From the sequence record NC_047767.1: a DNA stretch of 64,000 bases, one strand, 5' to 3'. A program made the position numbers and the translations under genes. The notes beneath the pieces are model-generated. The model worked only from the letters and a program-made list of their open reading frames with translations. It made no database searches and was not told the DNA's origin. This document shows, in pieces, positions 2,016-39,196 of the stretch (positions are counted from its first letter, which is position 1; every line of letters begins with the position of its first letter). Source of the DNA: Staphylococcus phage vB_SscM-1.

Positions 2016-3134
2016 CTAGTATACTTTAGTAATAATTAATCTTTCGTGCCACACGTAACCGTTATTATCTGGTGAATATACTCTACAATACCCATCTTTA
2101 GTAACTTCATAAACATAGAATATTTGACCCGGTTTGTATTTCTCATTCTTAAGTGTACCATTTCTAGTTGTAATTGTAACACCTGCACTATCGGCTTTAG
2201 CTTGTAGTATAGGTTTCTTTTGAACCTTTATTGTCCCTTTAGGAACTTTTTTACCAATTGCTAACTTAAGTTTTGGTGCCGGTGTTTTTTTCTTAGGTGT
2301 TACTTTCTTTTTAGCTTTAGCAACTGTAGCTTTAGCTTTAGCAACTGTCTTATTCTTAAATATCTCTACAACTCTTAAGCGTTCGAACCATACCCAACCA
2401 TTATTACTATTTGAGTATACTCTAGCCCAACCATTTTTAATTTCAAAGATATAAAATTGGTCATATCCTGCTTGGTAAACTTCGTTAGTAGGGTAGTACT
2501 TACCATTTTGTAACTTACAAATATTTACACCATACTTATCTGCTTTAGCTCTGAAATAAGCACCTTTAGAGTTAGATAAAGTTTTAGGTGGTACTTTACC
2601 TTTAACAATAGCTTTAGCTCCACTTGAACTATTAGATGTTGCAGGTGCTTTAGGTTTAGTAACTGGTTTAACTGTAGTAGGTTTACTTTCTGTAACTGTA
2701 GAACTTTTAGCGTACTTAGGTCTAATAAATACCATTGATGGGTCGTATGAGTGAGAACGTCTAGTAGCAACTTCAGTCTTACTTATTCCTCCACCCAACC
2801 AATTCTGCTCGATTACAGTTATTGTATTAAGTGTAGCACTGATAACTGAGGCAACGTGACCATATCCACCACCAAAAGTAGGACTAGTCCATACTACAAT
2901 ATCACCCGGTTGTGCTAAAAATTCAGGTGTATTGTTATATATATCTGCCTTACCTGTGAAGTCATTTTTATAAGGTATATCCTTAGCACCTTCACCGGCT
3001 AATGACATTCCCATTGCAAAGTAAGCATGGTAGTTAGCAGTATCAAAGCATTGCCATCCTGCATAGTTGTCCCAATCCCAACCTTTACCTTCTAAGGACT
3101 TAATGTAGTCCACAACTTGTTTTTGTGTTTTCAT
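2016..3134 (-). CDS. endolysin: CHAP peptidase domain plus two SH3b-like cell-wall-binding repeats
   Basis: N-terminal CHAP signature (YAGWQCFDTANYHAY...GYGHVASVIS). Two C-terminal repeats resemble each other and the C-terminus of the adjacent amidase (…WVWHERL…). Confidence 0.75.
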   Translation of the reverse strand: MKTQKQVVDYIKSLEGKGWDWDNYAGWQCFDTANYHAYFAMGMSLAGEGAKDIPYKNDFTGKADIYNNTPEFLAQPGDIVVWTSPTFGGGYGHVASVISATLNTITVIEQNWLGGGISKTEVATRRSHSYDPSMVFIRPKYAKSSTVTESKPTTVKPVTKPKAPATSNSSSGAKAIVKGKVPPKTLSNSKGAYFRAKADKYGVNICKLQNGKYYPTNEVYQAGYDQFYIFEIKNGWARVYSNSNNGWVWFERLRVVEIFKNKTVAKAKATVAKAKKKVTPKKKTPAPKLKLAIGKKVPKGTIKVQKKPILQAKADSAGVTITTRNGTLKNEKYKPGQIFYVYEVTKDGYCRVYSPDNNGYVWHERLIITKVY

Positions 3135-3182
3135 TTATTCTATTTCCTTTCTTGTTATATTGTATTCTTAATATAACAAGAT

Positions 3183-3216
3183 ACAAAAATAGGACTAAGG
3201 AATTAACCTTAGTCCT
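3183..3216 (-). terminator. rho-independent terminator (minus-strand) downstream of amidase endolysin
   Basis: Perfect 10-bp stem aggactaagg/ccttagtcct with loop aattaa; on the minus-strand RNA it is followed by a U-rich tract. Confidence 0.55.
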
Positions 3217-3223
3217 AAATATA

Positions 3224-4105
3224 TTACATAACTTTAGTAATAATTAATCGTTCATGCCATACCCAAAGATTTGAGTCTTTTGAATAAATTCTAGCCCAAC
3301 CATCTTTAACTTCGTAAACATGGAAATTAGGTGTACCTGCTTTATAAACTAGGTTAGTCTTTTGATACTTACTACCTACTTTTTTACACACTGTAATTCC
3401 TGCACTATCAGCTTTAGCAATAAATTGTTTAGAACTTTTATGAGCTAAAGTTTTAGGTGCTTTTTGTCCTACTTTAAGTTTACTAGTTGTTTTCTTAGTC
3501 TTAGGCTTAGTTGTTTTCTTAGCCGGTGCTTTTGTAGAGCCTCCAATAGATTTACCATGGATACCTTCTGCAATCTTCTTAGTAAATGATTGTAGGTTTT
3601 TCTTAATATAGTTCATGTCACCACTATTAGTAATAAATCCTAGTTCTACTAAACGGTAGTTAATATTAATTTGACCTGCAACATTACAATTTAATAAATC
3701 GTTACGTTTAGTTACACCTCTAATAACTCCTACTGTATCTTTAAGTGCTTTTTGAATACCATTATCAATACTATCTGCTGGATAAGCACTAGGTATAATA
3801 ACATGTCCTCCACTTGCACTTGGACTAGCACTATCTAAATGGAACTCAACTACAACTTTATATCCTTGAGATTTAACCCAATATAATCCGTAGTCTTTAG
3901 TATTACCTAATTTTTGACCATAAGCTGTATCTTGGTACATGTCTTGTGACTTACCGTAAATAGCAACAGTATGCCCTGCTTGCTTAAGATACTTAGCTAC
4001 ATTATCGACAATATTGTTTCTAATGAAATCTCTCTCATTTGTACCATTTCCGACTGCTCCAGGGTCGTTATATCCGTGACCTGCTACTAACATAATTTTA
4101 GTCAT
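3224..4105 (-). CDS. endolysin: N-acetylmuramoyl-L-alanine amidase (Amidase_3-type) plus SH3b-like cell-wall-binding domain
   Basis: N-terminus MLVAGHGYNDPGAVGNG...HLDSASPSASGGHVIIPS is typical of MurNAc-LAA (Amidase_3). C-terminal 65 aa match the CBD repeats of the CHAP lysin. Confidence 0.75.
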   Translation of the reverse strand: MTKIMLVAGHGYNDPGAVGNGTNERDFIRNNIVDNVAKYLKQAGHTVAIYGKSQDMYQDTAYGQKLGNTKDYGLYWVKSQGYKVVVEFHLDSASPSASGGHVIIPSAYPADSIDNGIQKALKDTVGVIRGVTKRNDLLNCNVAGQININYRLVELGFITNSGDMNYIKKNLQSFTKKIAEGIHGKSIGGSTKAPAKKTTKPKTKKTTSKLKVGQKAPKTLAHKSSKQFIAKADSAGITVCKKVGSKYQKTNLVYKAGTPNFHVYEVKDGWARIYSKDSNLWVWHERLIITKVM

Positions 4106-4170: not shown

Positions 4171-4365
4171 TTATTTATTTCTTGATGATAAACTTTCTAG
4201 TTTCTTAATAATTTGAGATGCTGTTTTATTATCTACTGACTCTAAAGTTGTTTCTGGTAAAAGTTCAATTGCATCCCAAACTTCTTGTTTATTACTAAAT
4301 TTTTCATTAACAATAACATTACCAATTAATGATTCCATATAGTAAACTTGTTTATTAGTTGCCAT
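4171..4365 (-). CDS. hypothetical small protein (not a holin: no transmembrane segment)
   Basis: The ORF track starts at 4410, but that N-terminus overlaps the RBS aaaaaggag. ATG at 4365 (MATNKQVYYMES...) is the likely start. Confidence 0.45.
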   Translation of the reverse strand: MATNKQVYYMESLIGNVIVNEKFSNKQEVWDAIELLPETTLESVDNKTASQIIKKLESLSSRNK

Positions 4366-5730
4366 TCCATAAAACTCCTTTTTTATTATATGTATAACCA
4401 CGGACGTCAACGTGGCTTTAAACTTCGGTTTCCATCATCGTAATAACTTCCACCTCAATACTCCGCAGAGTAGACATAGCTATGTAAAGTATATAACTAG
4501 CATCTCTTCCTAGGAGAACACGCTTGCGTTATATACTCAATGAAACTCTACCCTCATTCGAGGAAACAGCAAACCGATTCGTCAATCGCACATGTTAATT
4601 CTCAAGTTTCATTTATGTATAACTCCCTCTAACCTGTAACTTGGGAGCGTGGTAATTTACCATACGTACAAATTCCAGTTTTACATATTCAGGTACTAGT
4701 AAATATTTCAACTAGTTTGTGAAGTACGCTACCTTGAACTCATAAACTCCAATAGCTAAATAAGTTGTTTTTACTGAGGACATTTTTATTATGTATATAC
4801 CCTAGTGGTTAACTAGGGAGTTACTAAGGAACCACCTTAGCAAGTGGATATCTACAAACGTTGGCTAACTCGATACCTGCTACGAGTACTCCTAATATTT
4901 AAAAATAGCGTTAGGCACGCCCACGACCTTCGTAACGTTTTGTTTAGTAAGCTTGTTTATTCTATCAAATAAGTTTATAAATTGTACTTGGTCTGATACA
5001 ATAGTTTACTTACCTATGTATCCCCCTGGGCAATTAAACGCAGGAGGCAGTTCTTATGCCTATCACTTATAAGAAAACCTAAAACCATTATAAGCTGGAC
5101 TTTTGAAGATTGGTTTATTTTGTTCACGCATACGTAAAAACTTACCACTATCCATGGTTGATAAATTCTTACGCCCAGTATCATAGGGTTAGTTGAACAG
5201 GGACAAGTTATGGAACTAACTTGCGATAAAAGAGTTTTGTAGTTTATGTATGGCTAGTTATTTTTTATGTAGGACGAACTAGCAAAACTACATATCATCA
5301 TATAACCAGTAACTTCAGATGATAATAAAGTTTTTTTACAACTGGTTCATTTATGTATTGCCTACTCCTCGTAAGGTGGTAAGCTGAATTAATATATTAT
5401 GTATACTAGGATTGTACCAGTAAACTTCCTAGTGTTATCTTCCCATCTTGCACAGGAGACCTCGAGATTATCAGTCCCTTTAAATAGTTTTTTTCCTATG
5501 CCTATTACTAGATAGTAAGGATTGATTAATTCCAAACGTTACCCTCAATCTTTGGGTTAGCTCACAATATTTGAGTATGACACAGACTGGTTCGTGGATG
5601 ATTACCTCAATTCTATATATGTAACCTTGCACCTTGAACCCATAAACTCAGGTGCACCTAAAGCCGGCTAAGGAGTTTGGGTGACTTGGGGACATAGCAT
5701 TACCTCTTTTTTTGTTAGGACTATGTATAT

Positions 5731-5794
5731 AGAAGTGCAAGGGATTCGAACCCTTAGACTTAGCCTGCCTCCGGACACGCCGACTAGACACTTC
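5731..5794 (-). other. tRNA-like element (T-arm plus acceptor stem; incomplete cloverleaf)
   Basis: Minus strand reads GAAGTGT...AAGGG-TTCGAAT-CCCTT-GCACTTC-T. It has a canonical T-loop GGTTCGAATCC with a 5-bp T-stem and a 7-bp acceptor helix, but only 32 nt lie between them, too few for D, anticodon and variable arms. Confidence 0.35.
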
Positions 5795-5987
5795 TATTAT
5801 GATACCTACACTCAACTTAGTGCTTACACTTAAGATAGCCTAAGGTTTACAAATGTTTAGTTTATATGCATTTCAGCATTTGGCACGGTATCCTACCTTT
5901 TCCCTTCATTTTCTTAAGACAAATGCTATAACCTCACGATTATAGAGACTGTGTTTAAGCACACAGTTAAGCTACTATTGTAATTTC

Positions 5988-6016
5988 ATTATACCATATT
6001 ACTTGTTGTTTGTCAA
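5988..6016 (-). promoter_or_regulatory. sigma-A consensus promoter TTGACA-N17-TATAAT (minus strand)
   Basis: Plus strand has tgtcaa at 6011..6016 and attata at 5988..5993, exactly 17 nt apart. It sits inside the ORF-free block. Confidence 0.55.
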
Positions 6017-6833
6017 CTTCTTTTTTGTATTAAAAAAGTACACCTAGGAAACCTATACCATAATCTTATAGTGTACTGTGGTTTTTTATCTTAGGCTCGA
6101 AGCAACTCGGTACCTAAGAAAGGAAAATATGTATTTCTAGCAGGAAGTTTAGAAAGGATGTTGATATACCAATGTATAACGCTTTAATTAGAGAGGAGTT
6201 AACTTCCTGCTAGACATTATCAGTAAAGGAGTTTTAAGTCTGATAATATGTTTATGTTATTAAAAGAGGAATGATTCTGTTGTATTCTGATTAATACAAC
6301 TAAATATCCAAGCATAGCCCTTCTCAGGGGGAACTACCCAGTAAGAAACAGTATTAGACGACCTAGTGTAAGAAGATTCTATACGGTTGCAAGTCGTAGT
6401 CCATCTTTTACAGCAAAGAGCAATATAGGGGTTAGGTCTTTTACTAACCAACTTTCACACGATATGAAGAATTATAGTAAATTTCTATTTTAGCCTACAT
6501 ATCAAATTTGTTTTGTAATGTGGATTTGTGCTACTTGTACAGGTAACTTTCATTATCAAAACTATTTCTAGTCTCCAACCACATCAGAACTTTAAAGCGT
6601 AGTTTAAAAAGTTTCCGCTAAGAACTCCTTAAACGATTATTCCTGACTGTTACCTTGTCCTATATCCCTTACAGAGTAGTACCAAGCATTCCCCTCGTAT
6701 TAAAAAATACTCTAAGGTAAATGTCTGAGTTCTCACGCAGATTTATTACCTGTGACAATCTTGTACGTTACTCCTATCAGAGAGTTATTCCGTCACTATG
6801 CTTAGATATTTAGTTGTATTATCTTGTATATAT

Positions 6834-6862
6834 AATATAGCATACTTTTAATTCTTTGTCAA
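6834..6862 (-). promoter_or_regulatory. near-consensus promoter TTGACA-N17-TATATT (minus strand)
   Basis: Plus strand has tgtcaa at 6857..6862 and aatata at 6834..6839. Confidence 0.45.
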
Positions 6863-7041
6863 GTTCATTTTCAAATTATTTTAAATATGTATGTAGGATT
6901 CCACTATTAATCCTACATGTTTAATTATTTTAAGTGGTTTGATATAAGTTTTAAACTTATAAGAAAAATTGTTATTGTTTATACTGGAAAACAATTTTAT
7001 AAAAACAGTTGTGTAAGGGGTTTTAATTTGTTTGTAAATAC

Positions 7042-7070
7042 ATTATACCATATAATTCTACCCTTGTCAA
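7042..7070 (-). promoter_or_regulatory. sigma-A consensus promoter TTGACA-N17-TATAAT (minus strand), firing into the ORF-free block
   Basis: Plus strand has tgtcaa at 7065..7070 and attata at 7042..7047 with 17-nt spacing. It lies immediately downstream of the stop of the 7089..7313 gene. Confidence 0.55.
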
Positions 7071-7088
7071 GTTTATTTTAAACTTTTT

Positions 7089-7313: not shown

Positions 7314-7341
7314 ATCCTTTTCTTGTTTTATTTGTTAATTG

Positions 7342-7370
7342 TATTATATCATAAATAAAAGTATAAGTCA
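7342..7370 (-). promoter_or_regulatory. sigma-A consensus promoter TTGACT-N17-TATAAT (minus strand)
   Basis: Plus strand has agtcaa at 7365..7370 and attata at 7342..7347. The predicted start site is about 20 nt upstream of the ATG at 7313. Confidence 0.6.
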
Positions 7371-7426
7371 ACAAGTATTTAATATTTTTATTCCTGAGTA
7401 AACTTATAAATTTAATTTATAACTGT

Positions 7427-7455
7427 ATTATACTATATCCTGAGTAATAAGTCAA
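7427..7455 (-). promoter_or_regulatory. second tandem consensus promoter TTGACT-N17-TATAAT (minus strand)
   Basis: Plus strand has agtcaa at 7450..7455 and attata at 7427..7432. Confidence 0.55.
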
Positions 7456-7535
7456 CAGATTATACTAAATTTTTTATATTCTGAGTAAATTAAAAAGTAA
7501 AATCCTTTTATATCAAGGGTTTCAAGCTCTAAATT

Positions 7536-7632
7536 TTATGTTTAGAAAATAAGGAGTACTCCTAATATATAATACTATATCTATTATAAATAAATAAAAG
7601 AACTTAAATATAAATATATAAATAATAGAGTT
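7536..7632. repeat. direct repeat copy 1 (~97 bp) in AT-rich intergenic region
   Basis: ttttatgtttagaaaataag...aaaagaacttaaatataaatatataaataatagagtt. About 85% identical to copy 2, 144 bp downstream. Confidence 0.6.
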
Positions 7633-7679
7633 AAAGTCAACAACTTAATTATTACTAAGTTATCTGAATATTCAATTAA

Positions 7680-7776
7680 CTTTATGTTTAGAAAATAAGA
7701 AACCTTCTAATATATATTACTATATATTTATAATTAAATAAAAGAACTTAAATATAAATATATAAATAATAGAGTT
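7680..7776. repeat. direct repeat copy 2 (~97 bp)
   Basis: Aligns with 7536..7632; the last 45 nt are identical. Confidence 0.6.
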
Positions 7777-7816
7777 GGAAAAATCAGCAACAAAAAAGTG
7801 ACTTACAAAAAGTCAC

Positions 7817-10221: not shown

Positions 10222-10565
10222 ATGGATGGAAAGAAAATATTAAAAATAGCTCAAGAAACATTTGGTACTGAGGAGATAACAAGAGAACAATTAGACCACA
10301 TTATCAACATGTTAAATCCCTCAACATATATGTTAAGGTACCATACTTTAAGAGGGCACCCTATTACATTTAGTATTCCTAATAGGGATAGAAGTAAAGC
10401 ACAGGCACACCGCCCCTGGCAAGTAAAAATCGTAAATGACACCCATCCAAATAAAGTAGTAATTAAAAGCAGACAGCTTGGATTATCGGAAATGGGTGTA
10501 ATGGAGATGGTGCACTTTGCAGACCTTCATAGTTATGCTAACGTGAAGTGTTTGTTTACATTCCC
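10222..10565 (+). CDS. terL: terminase large subunit, exon 1 (ATPase N-terminus with Walker A)
   Basis: KSRQLGLSE resembles the T4 gp17 Walker A motif SRQLGKT. The track ORF runs on to a stop at 10570 inside intron sequence. The splice site is placed after U10565 (P1: attccct pairing with ggggaat, U·G at the junction). Confidence 0.6.
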
Positions 10566-10830
10566 TAAATAGTTGGGGAATTAAAACTCTGTTAAACGGG
10601 CAAAGCTGAATAATGAATAAGCTGGTAAGAGAACCTAAGTCCAAACGGATAGAGGCAATCCCGTGCTAAATCGAACTAAGGTATATATACCTTAGTTACG
10701 TAAAAGCCTAACGACTAAATTTCTAGGTAGCTATACAAAAGGGTATAGTGAGAACTAGATAAGAAAGCTCTTTATAGAGAAGTAAAGCAGAGAGCTTAAC
10801 ACCAAAACGTTGAGCTAAGATATAGTCTAG
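10566..10830 (+). mobile_element. group I intron (terL intron 1, ORF-less, ~265 nt)
   Basis: It shares a 17-nt 5' element and a ~60-nt near-identical core (gcctaACGACUAaat...) with the downstream intron. AACGACUA resembles P7 of phage IA2 introns. It ends in G10830, and joining restores a Pro codon (cc|t) and the reading frame. Confidence 0.6.
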
Positions 10831-11041
10831 TCCGTATATAAATATCACGAAAGTGACGGTAGTAACGACTAACGAACAAATGAAGAAATTTGTTCAGTCT
10901 AGGTTAAACCCAGTACTAGAGAAGGAATATTTTAAAGATATTGTAAACTGGGACAAAGACTCACTAGGATATAAACAAATAAGAAATTCTAGTATGTTCT
11001 TTAGAACTAGTAGTAAAGCTAGTACTGTCGAAGGTGTGGAT
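10831..11041 (+). CDS. terL: terminase large subunit, exon 2
   Basis: In-frame coding piece (…PYINITKVTVVTTNEQMKKF…STVEGVD). The ORF track shows only its GTG-initiated part, 10853..11047. The splice site is placed after U11041 (P1: guggaU pairing with GUCCAC). Confidence 0.55.
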
Positions 11042-12274
11042 AGGTAGTAAGTCCACATTAAACTCTGTTAAACGGGGAAACCCCTAACGTAAAGACGAGG
11101 GCAATCCCGTGCTAAATGTTGACTTTATATAAAATATATGTTATAATATATTTGTAAGGTTAATTAAATGCCTAACGACTAAATTTCTAGGTAGCTATAC
11201 AAAAGGGTATAGTGAGAACTAGATAAGAAAACCGCCAAGATTATTTTTAGTAAGTAAATAAGTTTATAAAAAAGGAGGGTTATTGTATGGATATGGAGGA
11301 GAAATTTAAAGAAAAACTATATAATTTAGTAAAAGATGAATATACATTAATAGGTAAATACATTAGAAGTACTGAAAAAGTATGCATTAAACACAATAAA
11401 TGTGGCTATGAATGGGATGTATACCCTGGAAATATACTTAATAAAAATACTAGATGCCCTAGATGTGCAGGTAATGCAAAGCTAACACACAGTGATTTTT
11501 TATCTAGAGTTAAACATGTACATGATGATTCTATCGAAGTACTTAGCACATATAAAGGTCAACTTAAGAAAGTAGATTTACAACATGAATGTGGTTACAG
11601 GTGGTCAGCAACACCTAATAACATACTGAGAGGTAAAGGTTGCCCTAAGTGTAGAGGCTCAATGAAGCTAACACAAGAGCAGATAGATTGTAGGATGTCT
11701 GAGTTATTTGAAGGTGAGTATAAATTTTTAGAACCTTATATAAATAGTGACACAGCTATTATGTGTAAACATTCATGTGGTCATACATGGAAGGTAAGAC
11801 CTTACAATTTATTTGGAGGTAGAAAGTGCCCTGTATGTTATAGAAGGTCACAGGGAGAATTATTCATCCAAAATATTCTAGAGACTAACAAGGTTAACTT
11901 TACAATAGAAAAATCATTTGAGGGTTGTAAAGATAAGATAGCACTAAGGTTTGACTTTTACTTACCCGACTATAATTGTGTTATTGAATATGATGGTGAG
12001 CATCATTTCTTAGACAATCGTTACTCTAAAAATTCAGATTCACTAGAAGTGGTGAAAAAGCGTGATAAGATAAAGGATGATTTCTGTAGAGATAATGGTA
12101 TTAATATGATACGCATTCCATATTATATGGATGATTTAAAAGTTAAGGAACTAATATTAGAACTTCTTGGCGGAAGTAAAGCAGAGAACCTTTCACCTAA
12201 TAGAAAGGTTATGATATAGTCTAATCCGACTCTTAAATGAGTGTTAAAGTATTAGGAAACTAACGGTATAAATG
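11042..12274 (+). mobile_element. group I intron (terL intron 2, ~1.23 kb) carrying a homing-endonuclease ORF
   Basis: The core at 11059..11230 is near-identical to intron 1. The ORF sits after the core. The intron ends in G12274 and exon 3 resumes in frame at 12275 (IDYLSLDE…); 12298/12299 is an alternative 3' site. Confidence 0.6.
11287..12219 (+). CDS. intron-encoded homing endonuclease: three zinc-ribbon repeats plus a DUF559/Vsr-like (PD-(D/E)xK-fold) nuclease domain
   Basis: Three repeats CGYEWDV…CPRC, CGYRWSA…CPKC, CGHTWKV…CPVC. The C-terminus FDFYLPDYNCVIEYDGEHHF…KKRDKIKDDFCRDNGINMIRIPY matches the DUF559 pattern (hDFh…hhIEhDG..H…D..RD..L…G..hhRh). Own RBS aaaaggaggg. Confidence 0.65.
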   Translation: MDMEEKFKEKLYNLVKDEYTLIGKYIRSTEKVCIKHNKCGYEWDVYPGNILNKNTRCPRCAGNAKLTHSDFLSRVKHVHDDSIEVLSTYKGQLKKVDLQHECGYRWSATPNNILRGKGCPKCRGSMKLTQEQIDCRMSELFEGEYKFLEPYINSDTAIMCKHSCGHTWKVRPYNLFGGRKCPVCYRRSQGELFIQNILETNKVNFTIEKSFEGCKDKIALRFDFYLPDYNCVIEYDGEHHFLDNRYSKNSDSLEVVKKRDKIKDDFCRDNGINMIRIPYYMDDLKVKELILELLGGSKAENLSPNRKVMI

Positions 12275-13567
12275 ATTGACTACCTTTCACTCGATGAGTA
12301 TGACCGTGTAAATGCACTTGCTGAGTCCTCAGCATTAGAGTCTATGTCTTCTTCCCCTTTCAAAGTAGTAAGGAGATGGAGCACTCCTACAGTTAAAGAT
12401 TATGGAATAGATAAGTTATACAAACAATCAGACCAATGGTTTTATGGTTATGACTGTAAACACTGTGACCATTTTAATGAAATGAAGTATGAAGACTACA
12501 ACCCAGATGATTTATCCGCAAGTGGAAATGTTCTTCTAGTTAACCCAGATGGAATAGATGAAGAAGCTAAGACTGTTCAGGATGGAACATATCAATATGT
12601 GTGTCAAAAGTGTGGTAAACCTTTAGAAAGATGGTATTCTGGTAGATGGGCTTGCAAGTATCCTAGCAGAACTGAAAATAACAAAGGTATAAGAGGATAC
12701 TTTATAAGCCAACTTAACGCTGTATGGATTTCTTTAGATGAGATTAAAGAAAAAGAAATGAGAACAGAGTCTAAACAAGCATTTTATAACTACATTATAG
12801 GAGCACCTTTCGAAGATGTAAAAATGAAAGTGTTAGATGGAGATATCCTGGATAATAAATCACCATTTGCTAAGAAACAATTATTTAATAGAGATAGATA
12901 CAAGTACATTTCAGTAGGTATAGATTGGGGAAATCATCATTGGGTAACAGTTCATGGTATGACACATGATAATAAGGTAGACCTTATTAGACTGTTTAAT
13001 GTTAAGAAAATGAGTAGACCTGATTTAGTAGAAGCAGACTTAGAGAAGATAATGTATGAGATATCAAAATATGACCCTGATATAATTGTAGCAGATAACG
13101 GAGACTCAGGTAACAATGTTCTTAAACTCATAAATAGATTTGGAGAAGATAAAGTATTTGGATGTACTTATAAATCTTCACCAAGGTCATCAGGACAACT
13201 TAGACCAGAGTTTAATGAGAAAAAGAATACTGTAACAGTAGATAAGCTAATGCAAAATAAAAAGTATATACAAGCATTAAAAACAAAAGATATTAGGATG
13301 TACCAAGAAGTAGATGATGACTTAAAACTTTATTTAAAACATTGGCAAAATGTTATAATTATGGATGAAGAAGATGAAAAGACAGGAGATATATACCAAA
13401 TAATTAAAAGACGTGGAGACGACCATTATAGTCAGTCAGCAGTTATTGGGTATATAGGTATTAATAGACTTTTAGATTTAGAAACTAAAACTAAAGGTAC
13501 TAACTTTGAATCTACATTTGTATCTACTGATTACAACACAGAAGATAATCCCAAATATCATATTTAG
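12275..13567 (+). CDS. terL: terminase large subunit, exon 3 (C-terminal region incl. RNase H-like nuclease domain)
   Basis: Motifs VGIDWGNHHW and DIIVADNGDSG are typical of the terminase nuclease domain. The spliced product is about 615 aa. Confidence 0.65.
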   Translation: MDYLSLDEYDRVNALAESSALESMSSSPFKVVRRWSTPTVKDYGIDKLYKQSDQWFYGYDCKHCDHFNEMKYEDYNPDDLSASGNVLLVNPDGIDEEAKTVQDGTYQYVCQKCGKPLERWYSGRWACKYPSRTENNKGIRGYFISQLNAVWISLDEIKEKEMRTESKQAFYNYIIGAPFEDVKMKVLDGDILDNKSPFAKKQLFNRDRYKYISVGIDWGNHHWVTVHGMTHDNKVDLIRLFNVKKMSRPDLVEADLEKIMYEISKYDPDIIVADNGDSGNNVLKLINRFGEDKVFGCTYKSSPRSSGQLRPEFNEKKNTVTVDKLMQNKKYIQALKTKDIRMYQEVDDDLKLYLKHWQNVIIMDEEDEKTGDIYQIIKRRGDDHYSQSAVIGYIGINRLLDLETKTKGTNFESTFVSTDYNTEDNPKYHI

Positions 13568-13581
13568 GAAGTGAAATAAAC

Positions 13582-14406
13582 TTGACAATTAAAACAATTA
13601 ATGATATAATAAGTAATGTAGATTTAACTACTAAATCTATGGATGAGAATAAACTGTTTTTCTATACAGGTAAATTCTTCTCCATGGAGGATGTTATTGA
13701 TAACTTAGATAAATATAATGTTGTTTATGAGCAAGTATATAAAAGTTATGGATTTAATAACTTTTATGATATGTTCATTTACGCAGACTCCAATACTGAT
13801 AAAGTATATAAAGGAGGAAACAAAGAATTATCTAAGCTTAATAAGGTTAAAAGAAAAGTAATGAGAAATGGCAAAATGATAGAGATGACTGTGTATGAGG
13901 CTAATGGTAATGAAGAAGAAGGTAAAGATAAACAACCATCTTCAGAAGATACTTCTACACCTAGGTCAGCTATCGGAGCAAAAGCAAAAGATAATGGTAA
14001 TGGAGATACTAAGGTAAATCCTAAAAAATTAGCAACCACTTTAGGACAACTAAAGAATTCAGGAGCTAATATTGAAAATGTGAGACAAGATGCTGATATG
14101 TATAGAGAATACACTGATGAAAATGGAGAAACGATAGGTTTGTCTGTTTTTAAAGAAGACGATAATACAATCACATTAGGAGGTTTCACTGGAGCAGAAG
14201 ATGTAACAGGACTAGGTATAAGGTCAGTTATGGAACTTATAAAACTAGGAATACAGAAAGAGAAAGGTATAATTGTAGAAGGTATAGACTCAGTAGAAGC
14301 AGAAGAGTTTTTAAAAACTTTGGGGTTCAAAAAAACTCAAGAAGTTTATAAGATGAGTAAAAAAGATGTTAAAGGATTTATTGGAGACTATGGAGACTTT
14401 TTATAG
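13582..14406 (+). CDS. hypothetical protein
   Basis: 274-aa ORF with a TTG start after aggaag. Confidence 0.5.
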   Translation: MTIKTINDIISNVDLTTKSMDENKLFFYTGKFFSMEDVIDNLDKYNVVYEQVYKSYGFNNFYDMFIYADSNTDKVYKGGNKELSKLNKVKRKVMRNGKMIEMTVYEANGNEEEGKDKQPSSEDTSTPRSAIGAKAKDNGNGDTKVNPKKLATTLGQLKNSGANIENVRQDADMYREYTDENGETIGLSVFKEDDNTITLGGFTGAEDVTGLGIRSVMELIKLGIQKEKGIIVEGIDSVEAEEFLKTLGFKKTQEVYKMSKKDVKGFIGDYGDFL

Positions 14407-28086: not shown

Positions 28087-28420
28087 AAATAATTGTTGCC
28101 TCTATACAGTAATGTATAGTTGAATAATACCTGAAATTGCGGGAACCCCTTAAAGCTAATCAAACTACAAAGTAATCCGAAAGGATAAGCTTGAATGTTA
28201 CGAAAGTAGAAAAAATTGATTAGATGGTATAAGGTGAGATAAAAGCATTAGTAACTAACGACATATTACTAGTGTCCTAAGTACTGGAACAATAGGAAAT
28301 CCGCAGGCAAGCTTACGAAAGTGAGAAGCTTCAACGACTGTAATAGGTAGACTCCTTATAAATAAGGGTCATGGGACAGTCTAACCCCTTTAAAATATAT
28401 TGAAAGATAGGGTGTAAGTG
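28087..28420 (+). mobile_element. group I intron (tail tube intron 1, 334 nt, ORF-less)
   Basis: A 334-nt non-coding segment ending in G28420, with conserved elements shared with intron 2 (…ucaACGACUguaau…). Exon 2 resumes the tube frame (NYNESWTTNEIVTESIEFSYLTAS). Confidence 0.55.
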
Positions 28421-28490
28421 AACTATAACGAGAGCTGGACAACTAATGAAATTGTAACAGAATCTATTGAGTTTAGTTATTTAACAGCAT
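28421..28490 (+). CDS. tail tube protein, exon 2 (70 nt)
   Basis: In-frame continuation; ends on U28490. Confidence 0.5.
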
Positions 28491-28740
28491 CAACTAACTA
28501 GGTGCCTTTACACAGCAATGTGTATCGAACAATCCTCTAATTCAGGGAACCTCTAAACATATTAAGATGTAGACAATCCTGAGCTAAGCTCCTTTAAGGA
28601 GAAAGTGCAACGACTAGTCAGAATGACGTACACTCAAGTGAGTGGAAATGGGGATTACCCTTATGGGGTAGTGATATAGTCTGAACTATATGGAAACATA
28701 TAGAAGGTTAGGAATAACGAACCTAATCGTAACATAATTG
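28491..28740 (+). mobile_element. group I intron (tail tube intron 2, 250 nt, ORF-less)
   Basis: Non-coding segment with a core resembling intron 1 (…gcaACGACUagucag…, …cagcaatgtgtat…). It ends in G28740. Confidence 0.5.
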
Positions 28741-28760
28741 CAGATAAAGCTTCAAATTAA
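28741..28760 (+). CDS. tail tube protein, exon 3 (20-nt micro-exon: ca gat aaa gct tca aat taa)
   Basis: It completes …LTAS-DKASN-stop, giving a 142-aa product, and is followed at once by a terminator hairpin. Confidence 0.45.
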
Positions 28761-28765
28761 TAAGG

Positions 28766-28800
28766 AAGACCTAACAATAAAAGTTAGGTCTTTAATTTTA
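28766..28800 (+). terminator. rho-independent terminator after tail tube
   Basis: Stem aagacctaac/gttaggtctt with loop aataaaa, then taatttta. Confidence 0.5.
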
Positions 28801-28803
28801 TAC

Positions 28804-28832
28804 TTGCTTTGTCAGAAGCAGTGTGGTATAAT
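28804..28832 (+). promoter_or_regulatory. promoter TTGCTT-N17-TGgTATAAT for the free-standing endonuclease gene
   Basis: -35 at 28804..28809, extended -10 at 28824..28832. RBS ataaggaggtaat lies before the ATG at 28856. Confidence 0.5.
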
Positions 28833-28855
28833 ATAAAATATAAGGAGGTAATATT

Positions 28856-35916: not shown

Positions 35917-38313
35917 ATGTATAGAAAAAGAAACCCAGTATTTAGAGTAGACTTTATAACAGATGATAATAACTTCACAGTAATGTATGACAGTAGTATT
36001 AAAGTTGAAGGTTCTACTATAGAAAATAGAATAAGAAATTTCCAAACTAAAAATTCTATGCAAGATGATAGTGCTGTATTCCAAATAACGTTAGCAGGAG
36101 ATACACATTGGGATAAAATATTAACTGTAAATGATATTATGAAAATATATGTTAACCCTAATCCTGCAGATGATAACGAGGGATTAATACTTAGTGGAAT
36201 GATTTCACAGGTTTCTAAGGTAGGAGCATATGGTAACAATCAGATAACTTATAGAATAACCGGACAATCATTCTCTAAACCTTTTCTAAAGTTCGGTTTA
36301 GGGGTTATACAAGAGGTTCAAGCAGTTCTTCCTTCTACAGGTTGGTTAGTGGATGGAGACAGAATATCCTTTACAGGTAAGTCAGCTTCTGCTATAATGA
36401 AAGGTGTATTAGATGAATTTGTTCCTCTAATGAAATATAACTTTACTGATGGTAAAGATAAAGGTTTTGGAAGTATAGCTTCTCACTTTAACTGGGATAA
36501 CTTAGAAAGCTGGGAAGAATTAGAAAACCTAGCAGATGCAACTCAACTGTCTAATTTTGATGGTTCTTTAAAACAGATGATGGATTTAATAACAGCTAAA
36601 CCATTTAATGAACTATTTTTTAGAAACGGTAAGGATGATAAAACAACAGATTTAATTATGAGAAGAACACCCTTCAATCCTACTCAATGGAATGCTTTAG
36701 ATTATGAAACAGTAACTTCAGAAGATTTAATTGAAGAGGATGTAGGTAAATCAGATGTAGAAACATACTCTATATTTACAGTATTAACGCCTGAGATAGG
36801 TAAGAACCTTAACTCTAGAATGTATTCTAAACCACAATACCATAAAGACTTAGTGGATAGATATGGTTATAGTAAACTTGAAGTAGATAACATGTACGTT
36901 AATTTATCTAGTAATGGCTCCTCAGAAGATGAAGATAGTGGAGTAGATGATGATAAAGGTACACAAGTTGCTACCTATGATAAAGTAAATAATGACCTAA
37001 AGAACAAAACAAGAGAAGTTATATCTAATAATAAGACAGGATATATAAAAGAATTATCCGGTAGGTATAAAAATCTTAGAAAAGAAGAAGCTAAGAAGAT
37101 TGTTAATGAATTTGTTAAAAAAGGTAAGCTTAGTAAAGATTATTACACAAAGGTAACCGGCAATGATGAGTTCTCAGATGGTTATGAGGATACTAGACCT
37201 AGAGCTACCATAGAAGATGTTAAGAAGGTATTAAAAGAAGAATTTAAAGATGAAAAAGCTTTTGAAGGTAAAAAGAAAAAGAGTAATAAAAAGAAAGCAA
37301 CAGAAAGACTAAGTAAAGAATTCAGGTATGGTAATCCAACTCAAGCTAAGAGATTAGTAGATGAGTATGTTAAGTATAAAGGAACACCTCCTGGAGATGA
37401 AGTATACCAAAAATATGTAGATTCCTTAAAAGATATTGATAACGTAACTTCAGATACAGGAACAGATGCTACAGATAGTCCTATCCTTACATTCAGTAAG
37501 ATGTTGTTTAATTGGTATCATAATAACCCTAACTTTTATTCAGGAGATATAATTGTAGTAGGACACCATAAGTATGATTTAGGTAAAAGACTTTTTGTAG
37601 AAGATAGACAGAGAAATGATGTATGGGAATTCTATATAGAATCTGTAGAACATTCCTTTGATTTTCAAAAAGGCTATACTACTACAATAGGTGTTACTAG
37701 AGGACTAAAAGAAGCTACTATACCTGCGGGTAGTCCTCACAGATTTAAGTACTTCTGGGGTAAATCATCTGACTTTACAGGAGGTTTACTAGGAGAAAAA
37801 TCTCTAGCAGAGATGAAGAAAGAAGCAGTAGAAGCTAAGAAAAATAAAAAAGGAAGTAGTGGAGATTCAGAAGGAGCAAATGATGGAGGTTCATTATCTA
37901 AACTAGAAAAGTTTGATGGTAATTTACCTAAGTATGATTTTAAAGCTCGTGAAGGAAACCACTTTACAACATTGCAGTGTACATGGTATTGTTATAATAG
38001 ACGTGCACAGCTAGGTATAGGATTAAAGATAAGCTCTAACAATTGGTGGCATGATGCATGGAAGTGGAAAGAACGCTCTAAAGCAGATGGATACTCAGGA
38101 GGCTCTAATCCTAAACAAGGTGCAGTAGTTGTATGGCAAGCATTTACAAAAGAAGCTCCTACTAAATATGGTCACGTAGCTTTCGTTGAGAAAGTACTAG
38201 ATGGAGGAAACAAGATTAAAATATCGGAGTACAACTATAACACACCAGAAGCTTACGGAGAAAGAACAATACCTGTAACAAGTGCAATGTACTTCATATA
38301 CGATAAAGGATGA
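35917..38313 (+). CDS. tail-associated murein hydrolase with C-terminal CHAP domain
   Basis: 798 aa; C-terminal CHAP motif (FTTLQCTWYCYNRRAQLG…YGHVAFVEKV). Confidence 0.65.
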   Translation: MYRKRNPVFRVDFITDDNNFTVMYDSSIKVEGSTIENRIRNFQTKNSMQDDSAVFQITLAGDTHWDKILTVNDIMKIYVNPNPADDNEGLILSGMISQVSKVGAYGNNQITYRITGQSFSKPFLKFGLGVIQEVQAVLPSTGWLVDGDRISFTGKSASAIMKGVLDEFVPLMKYNFTDGKDKGFGSIASHFNWDNLESWEELENLADATQLSNFDGSLKQMMDLITAKPFNELFFRNGKDDKTTDLIMRRTPFNPTQWNALDYETVTSEDLIEEDVGKSDVETYSIFTVLTPEIGKNLNSRMYSKPQYHKDLVDRYGYSKLEVDNMYVNLSSNGSSEDEDSGVDDDKGTQVATYDKVNNDLKNKTREVISNNKTGYIKELSGRYKNLRKEEAKKIVNEFVKKGKLSKDYYTKVTGNDEFSDGYEDTRPRATIEDVKKVLKEEFKDEKAFEGKKKKSNKKKATERLSKEFRYGNPTQAKRLVDEYVKYKGTPPGDEVYQKYVDSLKDIDNVTSDTGTDATDSPILTFSKMLFNWYHNNPNFYSGDIIVVGHHKYDLGKRLFVEDRQRNDVWEFYIESVEHSFDFQKGYTTTIGVTRGLKEATIPAGSPHRFKYFWGKSSDFTGGLLGEKSLAEMKKEAVEAKKNKKGSSGDSEGANDGGSLSKLEKFDGNLPKYDFKAREGNHFTTLQCTWYCYNRRAQLGIGLKISSNNWWHDAWKWKERSKADGYSGGSNPKQGAVVVWQAFTKEAPTKYGHVAFVEKVLDGGNKIKISEYNYNTPEAYGERTIPVTSAMYFIYDKG

Positions 38314-39196
38314 TTATGTGAAAACAGTAGAAGATGCTAAAAAAATAGTAATTAAATTTATTAATAACATAGCTGTATTTGATGAGTTGACTACTTCTAT
38401 TATTGAACAACGTGATGCTGAGTTAGTTGATTACACCAGTGATTATGTGTATGAAAGGGTCTCTGGTGTTAGACCATATGAAGGTGTTATTGAAAGAATA
38501 GAAGTTTTTAATATAGACTTTGAAGATATACAGGATAATATTAGTAATATAGATATGGTAGTTTCTTTTAGAAAGAAGATATACCAAGTAGATAGAGATA
38601 AAAATGTTGGAGATACAATTGTAACACTTAATTTACAGCTAAAACTGGAAAATGACAAATGGATTATAGATAACTACGAGCAAGAACAAGATGTGTTATA
38701 TGCAGATTATTTTCAGTATGAAGAGGATGAAGAAGAATTACCCACATCTATTACAATAGCAAGATACTTAATTGATAACTATAATGATTTTACAAATATT
38801 AAGTATATGTTTAAAGGTAAACCTACTGAAAATCCTTTTGAAACAGATAAAGATATCTATATAGATTCCTTTAATATACTTTATTGGTTATATCTCAAGG
38901 AGGGTGTAGAATTAGACTACCCTCTTACAGTAGATAGTTTATTAATTAGCTCTAAGTTTATTGAAGTGTTTAAAAAAGGACATAAGTATGAATTCAACAT
39001 AGAGAAACTATCAAGAGGAGATATACTTTTCTTTGGTAAAAGTGATGTATCTGTTGGAATATATACAGGTGAAAATACTTTTATATCTGTAAGAGGAAAG
39101 TTCCCTAAAGATAATAAGGGATTAGATTTATTTAAGTTAGATGAGTATTGGGAAGAATTTAATGGTAGAGTATTAAGGTATGGAGGTGACATTTAA
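38282..39196 (+). CDS. tail-associated protein (possible peptidase-like C-terminal region)
   Basis: 304-aa ORF overlapping the upstream stop. GTG at 38318 with RBS aaagga is an alternative start. Confidence 0.4.
   Translation: MQCTSYTIKDDYVKTVEDAKKIVIKFINNIAVFDELTTSIIEQRDAELVDYTSDYVYERVSGVRPYEGVIERIEVFNIDFEDIQDNISNIDMVVSFRKKIYQVDRDKNVGDTIVTLNLQLKLENDKWIIDNYEQEQDVLYADYFQYEEDEEELPTSITIARYLIDNYNDFTNIKYMFKGKPTENPFETDKDIYIDSFNILYWLYLKEGVELDYPLTVDSLLISSKFIEVFKKGHKYEFNIEKLSRGDILFFGKSDVSVGIYTGENTFISVRGKFPKDNKGLDLFKLDEYWEEFNGRVLRYGGDI

Follow-up and report, generated by a model that had tools for sequence, protein, structure and literature searches.

A non-coding RNA locus with a divergent ROOL-family RNA and UACAUA-punctuated hairpin modules in Staphylococcus phage vB_SscM-1

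The rumen-originating, ornate, large (ROOL) RNAs are encoded by phages and prophages near tRNA islands, and can reach the abundance of 16S rRNA (PMC12286853, PMC5643018). The ROOL RNA of L. salivarius is very abundant (PMC5643018), and the ROOL RNA env-120 assembles as a homo-octamer into a closed cage that holds the variable linker in its interior (PMC12286853). Here we describe a block at positions 4411 to 7088 of a 64,000-nt stretch of Staphylococcus phage vB_SscM-1 (NC_047767.1; this whole stretch is hereafter called the window), which we interpret as a locus devoted to non-coding RNA in this Sciuriunavirus-type member of the Twortvirinae, and which includes a 528-nt core RNA related to ROOL.

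The transcript lncRNA2 of Kayvirus is the most abundant phage transcript of phage K, making up 27% of all reads together with lncRNA1 (PMC11598898), and its region accounts for 8.4% of the counts in phage vB_SauM-515A1 (hereafter 515A1) (PMC7698491). The published definition of lncRNA2, at positions 38,024-38,566 of phage K and 38,000-38,525 of 515A1, is based on read coverage only. It was chiefly their position and abundance that led to a comparison of the Kayvirus lncRNAs with ROOL and GOLLD (PMC9241854), and a 2023 review asserts a sequence similarity of the lncRNAs to ROOL and GOLLD (PMC10383478); in our literature search, no paper was found that demonstrates the homology between lncRNA2 and ROOL or gives a structure.

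The best matches of the block are PG-2021_31, ZCSS1, UHP46 and MSShimriz1, all Sciuriunavirus-type myophages of Mammaliicoccus and Staphylococcus, with 91-94% identity along about 70% of its length, while Kayvirus, Silviavirus and other Twortvirinae show about 72% identity over one third of the length. A first-pass annotation of the sequence had described the block as free of open reading frames (ORFs) of 60 codons or more, elevated in GC content and located between the lysis genes and terL. The sole ORF of at least 60 amino acids (aa) between 4411 and 7088 is a 63-aa frame with TTG start (6260..6451, minus strand), which falls within the structured RNA described below; the two ORF-free gaps flanking this frame, 1849 nt and 637 nt in length, are the largest and the third-largest in the window, 89% of which is covered by ORFs of at least 60 aa. 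The location is also as claimed, with the endolysin genes (amidase and CHAP; 2016..4105, minus strand) just downstream of the block and a terminase ATPase fragment at 12272..13567. The elevation in GC was not borne out: the block has 34.2% GC against a window mean of 32.3% (standard deviation 2.2% for windows of the same size), ranks 110th among 614 such windows, and reaches a local maximum of 0.41 instead of the claimed 40-45%. In the account that we favor, with a probability of about 0.82, this locus produces a ROOL-family core RNA together with a series of hairpin modules, between which UACAUA sequences are likely sites of an endonuclease. The closing helix, the ROOL identity and the UACAUA punctuation are absent from the first-pass annotation.

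The core RNA and its relation to ROOL

The core of the locus is the following element.

6292..6821, minus strand: 528-nt ROOL-family RNA, homologue of Kayvirus lncRNA2, defined by its closing helix, the Rfam match and covariation.

The closing helix is formed between 6796..6821 and 6292..6317, the two 26-nt arms being 96% complementary and 478 nt apart. For analysis of the structure, an alignment was made of 15 sequences from several genera and lineages of Twortvirinae. RNAalifold predicted 135 base pairs on this alignment, 78 of them with compensatory changes, and upon addition of one helix recognized by eye, the structure included a total of 140 pairs in 20 helices. Along these 140 pairs, 98.4% of the cells of the alignment are paired, as compared with 35-40% in slid controls, in which the partners were displaced by 1-3 columns. 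Changes on both sides were observed for 80 of the 140 pairs and, in the slid controls, for at most 24; the covariation score reached 0.518, with values no higher than 0.082 in these controls; and none of 500 shuffles matched the observed values. The core RNA exists as a single copy per genome in Sciuriunavirus, Kayvirus, Silviavirus, Twortvirus, Sepunavirus, Baoshanvirus and unclassified relatives. The core RNA is a highly structured RNA rather than a remnant. Both suggestions of the first-pass annotation are supported in part. The suggestion of a decayed tRNA region agrees with the neighboring segment, where the tRNA island of the relatives is gone and one remnant is left (see below). As for the other suggestion, that abundant structured RNAs are made here, the structured RNA was confirmed by the covariation among aligned homologues, while its abundance has been measured in the homologues of phage K and 515A1.

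The Rfam search, also proposed in the first-pass annotation, yielded a match to ROOL (RF03087) when 556 nt were submitted alone, with a score of 62.1 bits and an E-value of 4.4e-12, extending along 6301..6815 (minus strand) of the window and positions 1-574 of the 574-position model. Within this match, the ROOL consensus blocks GUACAAGUAGC, GUGAAAGUUGG, UUGGAG..GAAAU and AAUUCU are aligned, and the first three, of which GUACAAGUAGC and GUGAAAGUUGG are 11-mers, show identity to the most conserved blocks of the family. Closing helix, hairpins and nested domains of the core RNA fall on the corresponding ROOL elements in the Rfam alignment, and so does an AU-rich variable linker (approximately 6445..6515), the columns of which are the least conserved in our alignment. 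When GUACAAGUAGC and GUGAAAGUUGG at a distance of 55-85 nt were searched for in IMG/VR, 85 contig stretches were found, nearly all on unrelated contigs of 5-50 kb. Based on these comparisons, the core RNA is assigned to the ROOL family, and is called a divergent branch because its score is under the Rfam gathering threshold, which is a curation cutoff and not a structural feature.

Compared with known ROOL RNAs, the core RNA shares a size of about 520-660 nt, the match along the full-length model, the signature blocks, the long closing helix and the variable linker; it also shares the setting, being phage-encoded with orthologues lying beside tRNAs in most Twortvirinae loci examined, and the extreme abundance, as measured in orthologues. 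It differs in the score below the curated threshold and in the loss of the neighboring tRNAs, and the staphylococcal branch is located in large virulent myophages of Staphylococcus and Mammaliicoccus. With GOLLD the core RNA has in common that it is a large and abundant phage RNA near tRNAs, cage formation being a feature of GOLLD, but size and architecture are different and the GOLLD covariance model gave no match at E-values up to 10 on either 556 nt or 3.5 kb.

The orthologue in phage K (38010..38589) encloses the published lncRNA2. It is located at the same position behind the same type of promoter, shares about 71% identity across 68% of the query, and can be aligned end to end within the 15-sequence alignment with every helix kept. 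The core RNA adds a divergent member to a known RNA family, and the transcript itself had already been described in relatives. The difference resides in what comes next: in Kayvirus, tRNA-Asp, tRNA-Phe and tRNA-Trp follow without a promoter of their own, whereas in vB_SscM-1 a terminator, a new promoter and hairpin cassettes take the place of the tRNAs. By analogy with Kayvirus, we infer that the core RNA of vB_SscM-1 accumulates to very high levels during infection. The RNA transcribed from the promoter P2 (see below) would adopt the ROOL architecture, with several nested domains, an internal variable linker and at least one pseudoknot-type helix in addition to the long closing helix, and, judging from the solved ROOL structure, probably self-assembles into an RNA-only multimeric cage.

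As a possible paralogue of the core RNA, lncRNA1 of phage K was also examined, and was rejected for lack of a profile match and of any match to ROOL or GOLLD. The 3' part of the lncRNA1 region (13,639-13,768) weakly matches the DUF3800-I RNA motif (32.7 bits, E = 0.004), this match being cut off at the end of the searched stretch.

Promoters and hairpin cassettes in the place of a tRNA island

Three minus-strand promoters are present, exactly at the positions given in the first-pass annotation (7070..7042, 6862..6834 and 6016..5988).

7042..7070, minus strand: sigma-70-type promoter P1, TTGACA-N17-TATAAT (12/12) with extended TG, homologue of p78 of 515A1.
6834..6862, minus strand: promoter P2, 11/12 with TG, driving the ROOL RNA, homologue of p78_1 of 515A1.
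5988..6016, minus strand: promoter P3, 12/12 with TG, driving the cassette array.

A similarity of 60 nt is common to all three promoters. The P2 homologue p78_1 is marked with a step in RNA-seq coverage, indicating that it is active in 515A1, and the distance from the end of the P2 -10 box to the closing helix is 12 nt. Phage K has no promoter at the position of P3, where the tRNAs come directly. From these three consensus early promoters, the locus would be transcribed along the minus strand by the host RNA polymerase.

The segment downstream of P3 corresponds to the tRNA island of related phages.

4621..5981, minus strand: array of non-coding hairpin cassettes in the slot of the tRNA island, about 1.4 kb, headed by P3.
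5731..5795, minus strand: tRNA-like remnant of 65 nt that has nine acceptor pairs and a perfect T arm, GGUUCGAAUCC, and lacks the anticodon arm.

No tRNA was detected by ARAGORN anywhere in the window, and relaxed settings returned implausible calls only. One to three tRNAs follow the ROOL orthologue in the majority of the other Twortvirinae loci examined, as the first-pass annotation had stated of related phages; they were identified by ARAGORN in VL14 (Trp, Phe and Asp), CF5 (Asn), PG-2021_12 (Thr, Ser and Ser), 184DA (Phe) and PSU5 (Asp), and by record annotation in K (Asp, Phe and Trp), JS1 (Asp) and Stab23 (Asp and Trp). The array of vB_SscM-1 thus resembles a phage tRNA island in genomic slot and direction of transcription and in the acceptor/T-arm remnant left behind, but is devoid of functional tRNA, its modules being unrelated hairpin structures. 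The tRNA island of the relatives has been replaced by shuffled hairpin cassettes under a promoter of their own, P3.

The remnant, the only tRNA-like sequence as noted before, is predicted to fold into nine acceptor pairs, a 5-pair T arm (AAGGG-UUCGAAU-CCCUU) with the GUUCGAAUC loop, and a 4-pair central stem carrying a 5-nt loop instead of the 7-nt anticodon loop. It was not called as tRNA by ARAGORN even at relaxed thresholds, and its Rfam matches are weak (tRNA-Sec, 17.6 bits against a threshold of 47; mascRNA, 15.8 bits). Global alignment to nine phage tRNAs identified no clear parent. The remnant lies at the end of one cassette, and is absent from the related loci L002 and L003.

The cassettes are common only to the clades of Mammaliicoccus phages. 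No cassette matched Rfam. In a scan of 596 Gb of genomes with 18-mers for a host origin of a cassette, four matches were obtained, all in unrelated organisms and none representing a host homologue; since about 17 matches are expected by a uniform-composition estimate, these were treated as chance. Two cassette hairpins (4731-4749 and 5631-5649, minus strand) carry a near-identical 15-nt loop, GAGUUUAUGRGUUCA, on different stems.

UACAUA sites and the alternatives to be weighed

The modules of the locus are punctuated by a short motif. A total of 28 copies of ATACATA are present in the whole window, and 10 of these lie within 4389..6892, all on the minus strand, where 0.5-1.1 copies are expected; each is located 0-3 nt past the 3' strand of a hairpin. 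Fourteen copies of UACAUA (5.6 per kb) were counted on the transcribed strand between 4380 and 6900, more than for any other hexamer there, eight of them in the cassette array (starting at 5727, 5623, 5403, 5357, 5271, 5250, 5020 and 4795), and the core pentamer TACAT was counted 15 times against 4.3-6.7 expected. The ROOL RNA itself contains no UACAUA. The predicted unpaired probability of the UACAUA sites has a median of 0.46, as compared with 0.13 for AU-rich hexamers (p = 0.006), 4 of the 14 sites being predicted as mostly paired. Most of the 14 sites come right behind a hairpin.

In contrast to this enrichment, UACAUA is avoided in the genes. On the sense strand of the 59 predicted genes of the window (55 kb), only nine copies were found, where synonymous codon shuffling predicts 28.6 +/- 4.2 (z = -4.7), which ranks this hexamer 18th in depletion among 1753 hexamers, the higher ranks being taken mostly by GATC-containing words and A/T-rich runs. 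The antisense strand of the same genes, with 43 copies, is not depleted, and neither are the one-letter variants TACATT/C/G and A/C/GACATA. In the genes of phage K (47 kb), only two copies were detected against 18.4 +/- 3.7 expected (z = -4.4, again rank 18), while three copies lie in its 1.5-kb non-coding gap. In the same counts, all the GATC-containing hexamers are absent from the genes of both the window and phage K, which points to restriction avoidance, and TGGACA is missing from the window genes (0 against 19 expected).

The sequence U^ACAUA has been described as the strict in vivo site of the toxin MazF in B. subtilis, L. monocytogenes and S. aureus (bioRxiv 10.64898/2026.08.06.743204), and UACAUA is among the S. 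aureus motifs identified by nEMOTE (PMC7470975). A survey whose strains included S. sciuri, S. vitulinus and S. lentus detected the mazEF-Sa system in every Staphylococcus strain that it covered (PMC5647390). The specific avoidance of the hexamer in the phage genes is suggestive of MazF acting on these phages. The UACAUA copies of the locus are most likely endonuclease sites, for which host MazF would be the best candidate. As far as the searchable literature shows, this pattern of MazF sites is new.

The modules are separated by UACAUA copies predicted to be exposed. Cleavage at these sites would yield hairpin-ended RNAs, absorb MazF activity, or both. As a sink, the exposed copies in strongly transcribed RNA would absorb MazF during infection; as processing sites, they would allow MazF to cut the precursor into hairpin-ended RNAs and to free the message of the lysis region; and a sensor coupled to the lysis-region message is a further option. 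That the UACAUA-punctuated transcripts are an RNA device of the phage aimed at host MazF, either sink or processing, is put forward as a tentative idea, which we hold to be somewhat less probable than its converse. The pseudo-ToxI repeats of phage PhiTE are reportedly an RNA countermeasure of a similar kind, mimicking the RNA antitoxin of a type III system. Both would be repeated phage non-coding RNAs acting on a host toxin endoribonuclease, but the units of vB_SscM-1 are unrelated hairpins that display a candidate substrate of a type II toxin.

If such a device exists, it would be the first case in which a phage engages a type II toxin through RNA, and would tie the locus of ROOL and the tRNA island to toxin-antitoxin defense. 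The concentration of UACAUA in a non-coding locus provides a concrete hypothesis, which matters to phage therapy with respect to host range and resistance. Should the most abundant transcript of phage K and its relatives be a ROOL RNA, an RNA of solved structure and unknown function gains a tractable system, that is, virulent S. aureus phages with published transcriptomes, genetics and therapeutic interest, together with an informative natural variation: genera with the RNA, a clade with a predicted RNA-binding protein instead, and a clade devoid of tRNA.

The motif might instead be recognized by another endoribonuclease or by an RNA-binding protein, or might serve at the DNA level as a recombination or homing site. 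In favor of this, the heptamer AUACAUA, which exceeds the MazF site by one base, is the commonest form; the breakpoints of the cassettes relative to L002, L003 and PG-2021_12 (MZ417316.1, L004) fall at the ATACATA motif; and homing endonucleases are many in Twortvirinae. On the other hand, the hexamer is exactly the strict in vivo MazF site (bioRxiv 10.64898/2026.08.06.743204; PMC7470975), the mazEF-Sa genes are carried by all the strains examined (PMC5647390), and the avoidance is strand-specific (9 sense against 43 antisense copies), thereby pointing to selection at the level of RNA and not of DNA. Recognition by a factor other than MazF is thus held to be rather unlikely.

Less probable still is that the cassettes at 4621..5981 are functionless debris of the tRNA island, with ATACATA as microhomology for recombination. 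Such debris could account for the tRNAs of the relatives at this site and the truncated tRNA-like piece kept in vB_SscM-1, for the order and content of the cassettes that vary between phages 94-97% identical elsewhere, and for the failure to match the cassettes with any known RNA family or, by the 18-mer scan, with any host homologue. It does not agree with the dedicated 12/12 promoter of the array, nor with the terminal hairpins: in that of one cassette, compensatory changes preserve the pairing, and the heptamer is invariant. The hexamer, moreover, is enriched about ten-fold on one strand only and specifically avoided in genes, and the same motif flanks conserved elements in distant genera.

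The 528-nt RNA could also be merely ROOL-like, representing a separate family of different fold and role. In favor of this, the match includes a bias term of 16.9 bits in addition to its low score, and a covariance model of a 119-position sub-domain, made from the Staphylococcus-phage group, matched only its own group among 82 sources. The alignment along the full model, the coincidence of independently predicted helices with the ROOL helices, the identical signature blocks, the variable linker at the same place and the same context (phage, tRNA neighbors and extreme abundance) all argue against a separate family, and the sequence profile of the Staphylococcus-phage group reaches four viral loci outside Staphylococcus along 150-240 positions (E = 1e-9 to 2e-10). 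A separate family is accordingly considered improbable.

That the block encodes small proteins, or proteins in a non-standard code, is hardly credible: several ORFs of 30-56 aa exist and the annotation of one relative lists nine short hypothetical proteins in this block, but none of the ORFs is conserved, single-base indels distinguish homologous cassettes, the core shows substitutions that obey base-pairing and not codon phase, the flanking genes use the standard code, and an alternative genetic code would be an unnecessary assumption in view of the covariation and the RNA-family match.

Several points weigh against the account of a ROOL-family RNA with MazF-directed modules. The ROOL score of 62.1 bits is below the Rfam gathering cutoff of 99.1, and the match appeared only upon submission of the 556 nt by themselves, a case in which the search filters are laxer; neither the gathering mode on the 64-kb window nor the E-value mode on 3.5 kb, which gave nothing useful, detected ROOL, and Rfam negatives on long stretches are therefore unreliable for this family. 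The group-specific sub-domain model above gives no reciprocal support. The ROOL RNA of L. salivarius is non-essential (PMC12286853). Promoter p78 of 515A1 (TTGACA-N17-TATAAT), the homologue of P1, is listed in the supplement of that study without the mark of a coverage step. The link to MazF is hypothesized from sequence statistics and published specificity. Finally, the clade of PG-2021_12 is devoid of the core RNA and has a protein gene at the same position, so that the RNA must be dispensable for some Twortvirinae.

This gene of PG-2021_12 (4784-6358, minus strand) codes for a 524-aa protein with DUF2828 and DUF7788, belonging to PHROG 850 ("RNA-binding protein"), for which a search of solved structures gave no informative match; the shared cassettes and three tRNAs are retained in this phage despite the lack of ROOL. 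The RNA may have been functionally replaced here by an RNA-binding protein.

Among the generic ROOL loci from IMG/VR, a conserved UACAUA was observed in the 5' domain of 49 of 82, about 284 nt before the GTACAAGTAGC block. This spike was set aside as uninformative, being a conserved and probably paired block in one related group of ROOL.

Flanking modules and other features of the window

Upstream of the core RNA, a short transcript is predicted from P1.

6889..7035, minus strand: AU-rich leader or small RNA, a putative transcript with a terminator-type hairpin (6889..6920) at its end.

The hairpin proposed in the first-pass annotation as the end of this transcript, of about 145 nt, is present, with 12 pairs spanning 6889..6920 and followed by UACAUACAUA. 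Phage K shares the core of this hairpin, CCUUACACA..UUGUUUUCCAGUAUAAA, and carries an annotated terminator there.

Between the core RNA and P3, the transcription unit of ROOL carries three further elements, identified by sequence and fold or as an inverted repeat.

6214..6249, minus strand: hairpin with a C/U-rich loop, ACUCCUUU (UUUCCUCCUUUG in phage K), from sequence and fold.
6128..6217, minus strand: long hairpin with arms 6133..6149 and 6201..6217, then UACAUA at 6133..6128, from an inverted repeat.
6032..6077, minus strand: terminator-like stem AGUACAC/GUGUACU, then UUUUUU, from sequence and fold.

The ATTATCAG stem of the first hairpin is conserved in alignment A1. Its counterpart in phage K, also just after ROOL (2630-2670 of locus L018), carries the C/U-rich loop UUUCCUCCUUUG, and the loop in the window resembles the 3' end of 16S rRNA. 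The loop is also similar to the C-rich loops with which regulatory RNAs of staphylococci bind ribosome-binding sites. The long hairpin has 17-nt arms that are 94% complementary, with AUACAUA immediately after, and the unpaired probability predicted for this UACAUA is 0.68. In 12 of the 13 phages examined, the first UACAUA, at 148-241 nt past ROOL, is located directly 3' of a hairpin, the stem sequence of which varies between genera. The terminator-like stem was missed by the terminator scan, its loop being longer than 8 nt.

Downstream of the cassette array, two modules precede the genes of the lysis region.

4481..4619, minus strand: conserved structured element of about 127 nt with UACAUA at 4619..4614 and 4486..4481, from conservation and covariation.
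4389..4480, minus strand: last hairpin module, then UACAUA at 4394..4389, from sequence.

The segment 4481..4630 is 89% identical to Kayvirus, as compared with 68% for the adjacent gene. The 127-nt element is predicted to form a three-way junction and a long hairpin, with compensatory changes at 14 of 47 pairs among six sequences, and the flanking UACAUA copies keep a fixed spacing of 133 nt in the window, MSShimriz1, VL14, K, 184DA and PSU5. In Kayvirus, the first UACAUA of the element comes directly after tRNA-Trp, and 8 nt separate the second from the ribosome-binding site that follows it, that of the gp074 homologue. The element was also considered as a late promoter, and this was rejected because pL74, the late promoter of the lysis unit in 515A1, is located downstream of the gp074 homologue. 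The last UACAUA (4394..4389), with a predicted unpaired probability of 0.52, is located 12 nt before the ribosome-binding site of a 66-aa gene (4371..4171) belonging to PHROG 987, of unknown function.

Outside the block, the stretch 7314-7816 is ORF-free along 503 nt, shows the lowest GC of the region (0.18-0.22), and contains a 26-nt direct repeat, AAATAAAAGAACTTAAATATAAATAT, twice; its position corresponds to an untranscribed AT-rich region of phage K, the proposed replication origin (PMC9241854). The second-largest ORF-free gap of the window (28093-28855, 763 nt) includes a segment (around 28533-28706) that resembles sequences of many unrelated phages (T4-like, Bacillus and Vibrio phages), some of which are annotated as intron-associated, and this gap is probably an ORF-less group I intron, missed by the Rfam filters as ROOL was. 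The gene for the large terminase is apparently interrupted (10222-13567, with the ATPase fragment at 12272-13567). Within it lies an endonuclease-like ORF (11287-12219) with a treble-clef zinc finger and DUF2726, flanked by the ORF-free stretches 10573-10852 and 11048-11286, and the interruption is likely to be an intron or a homing element.

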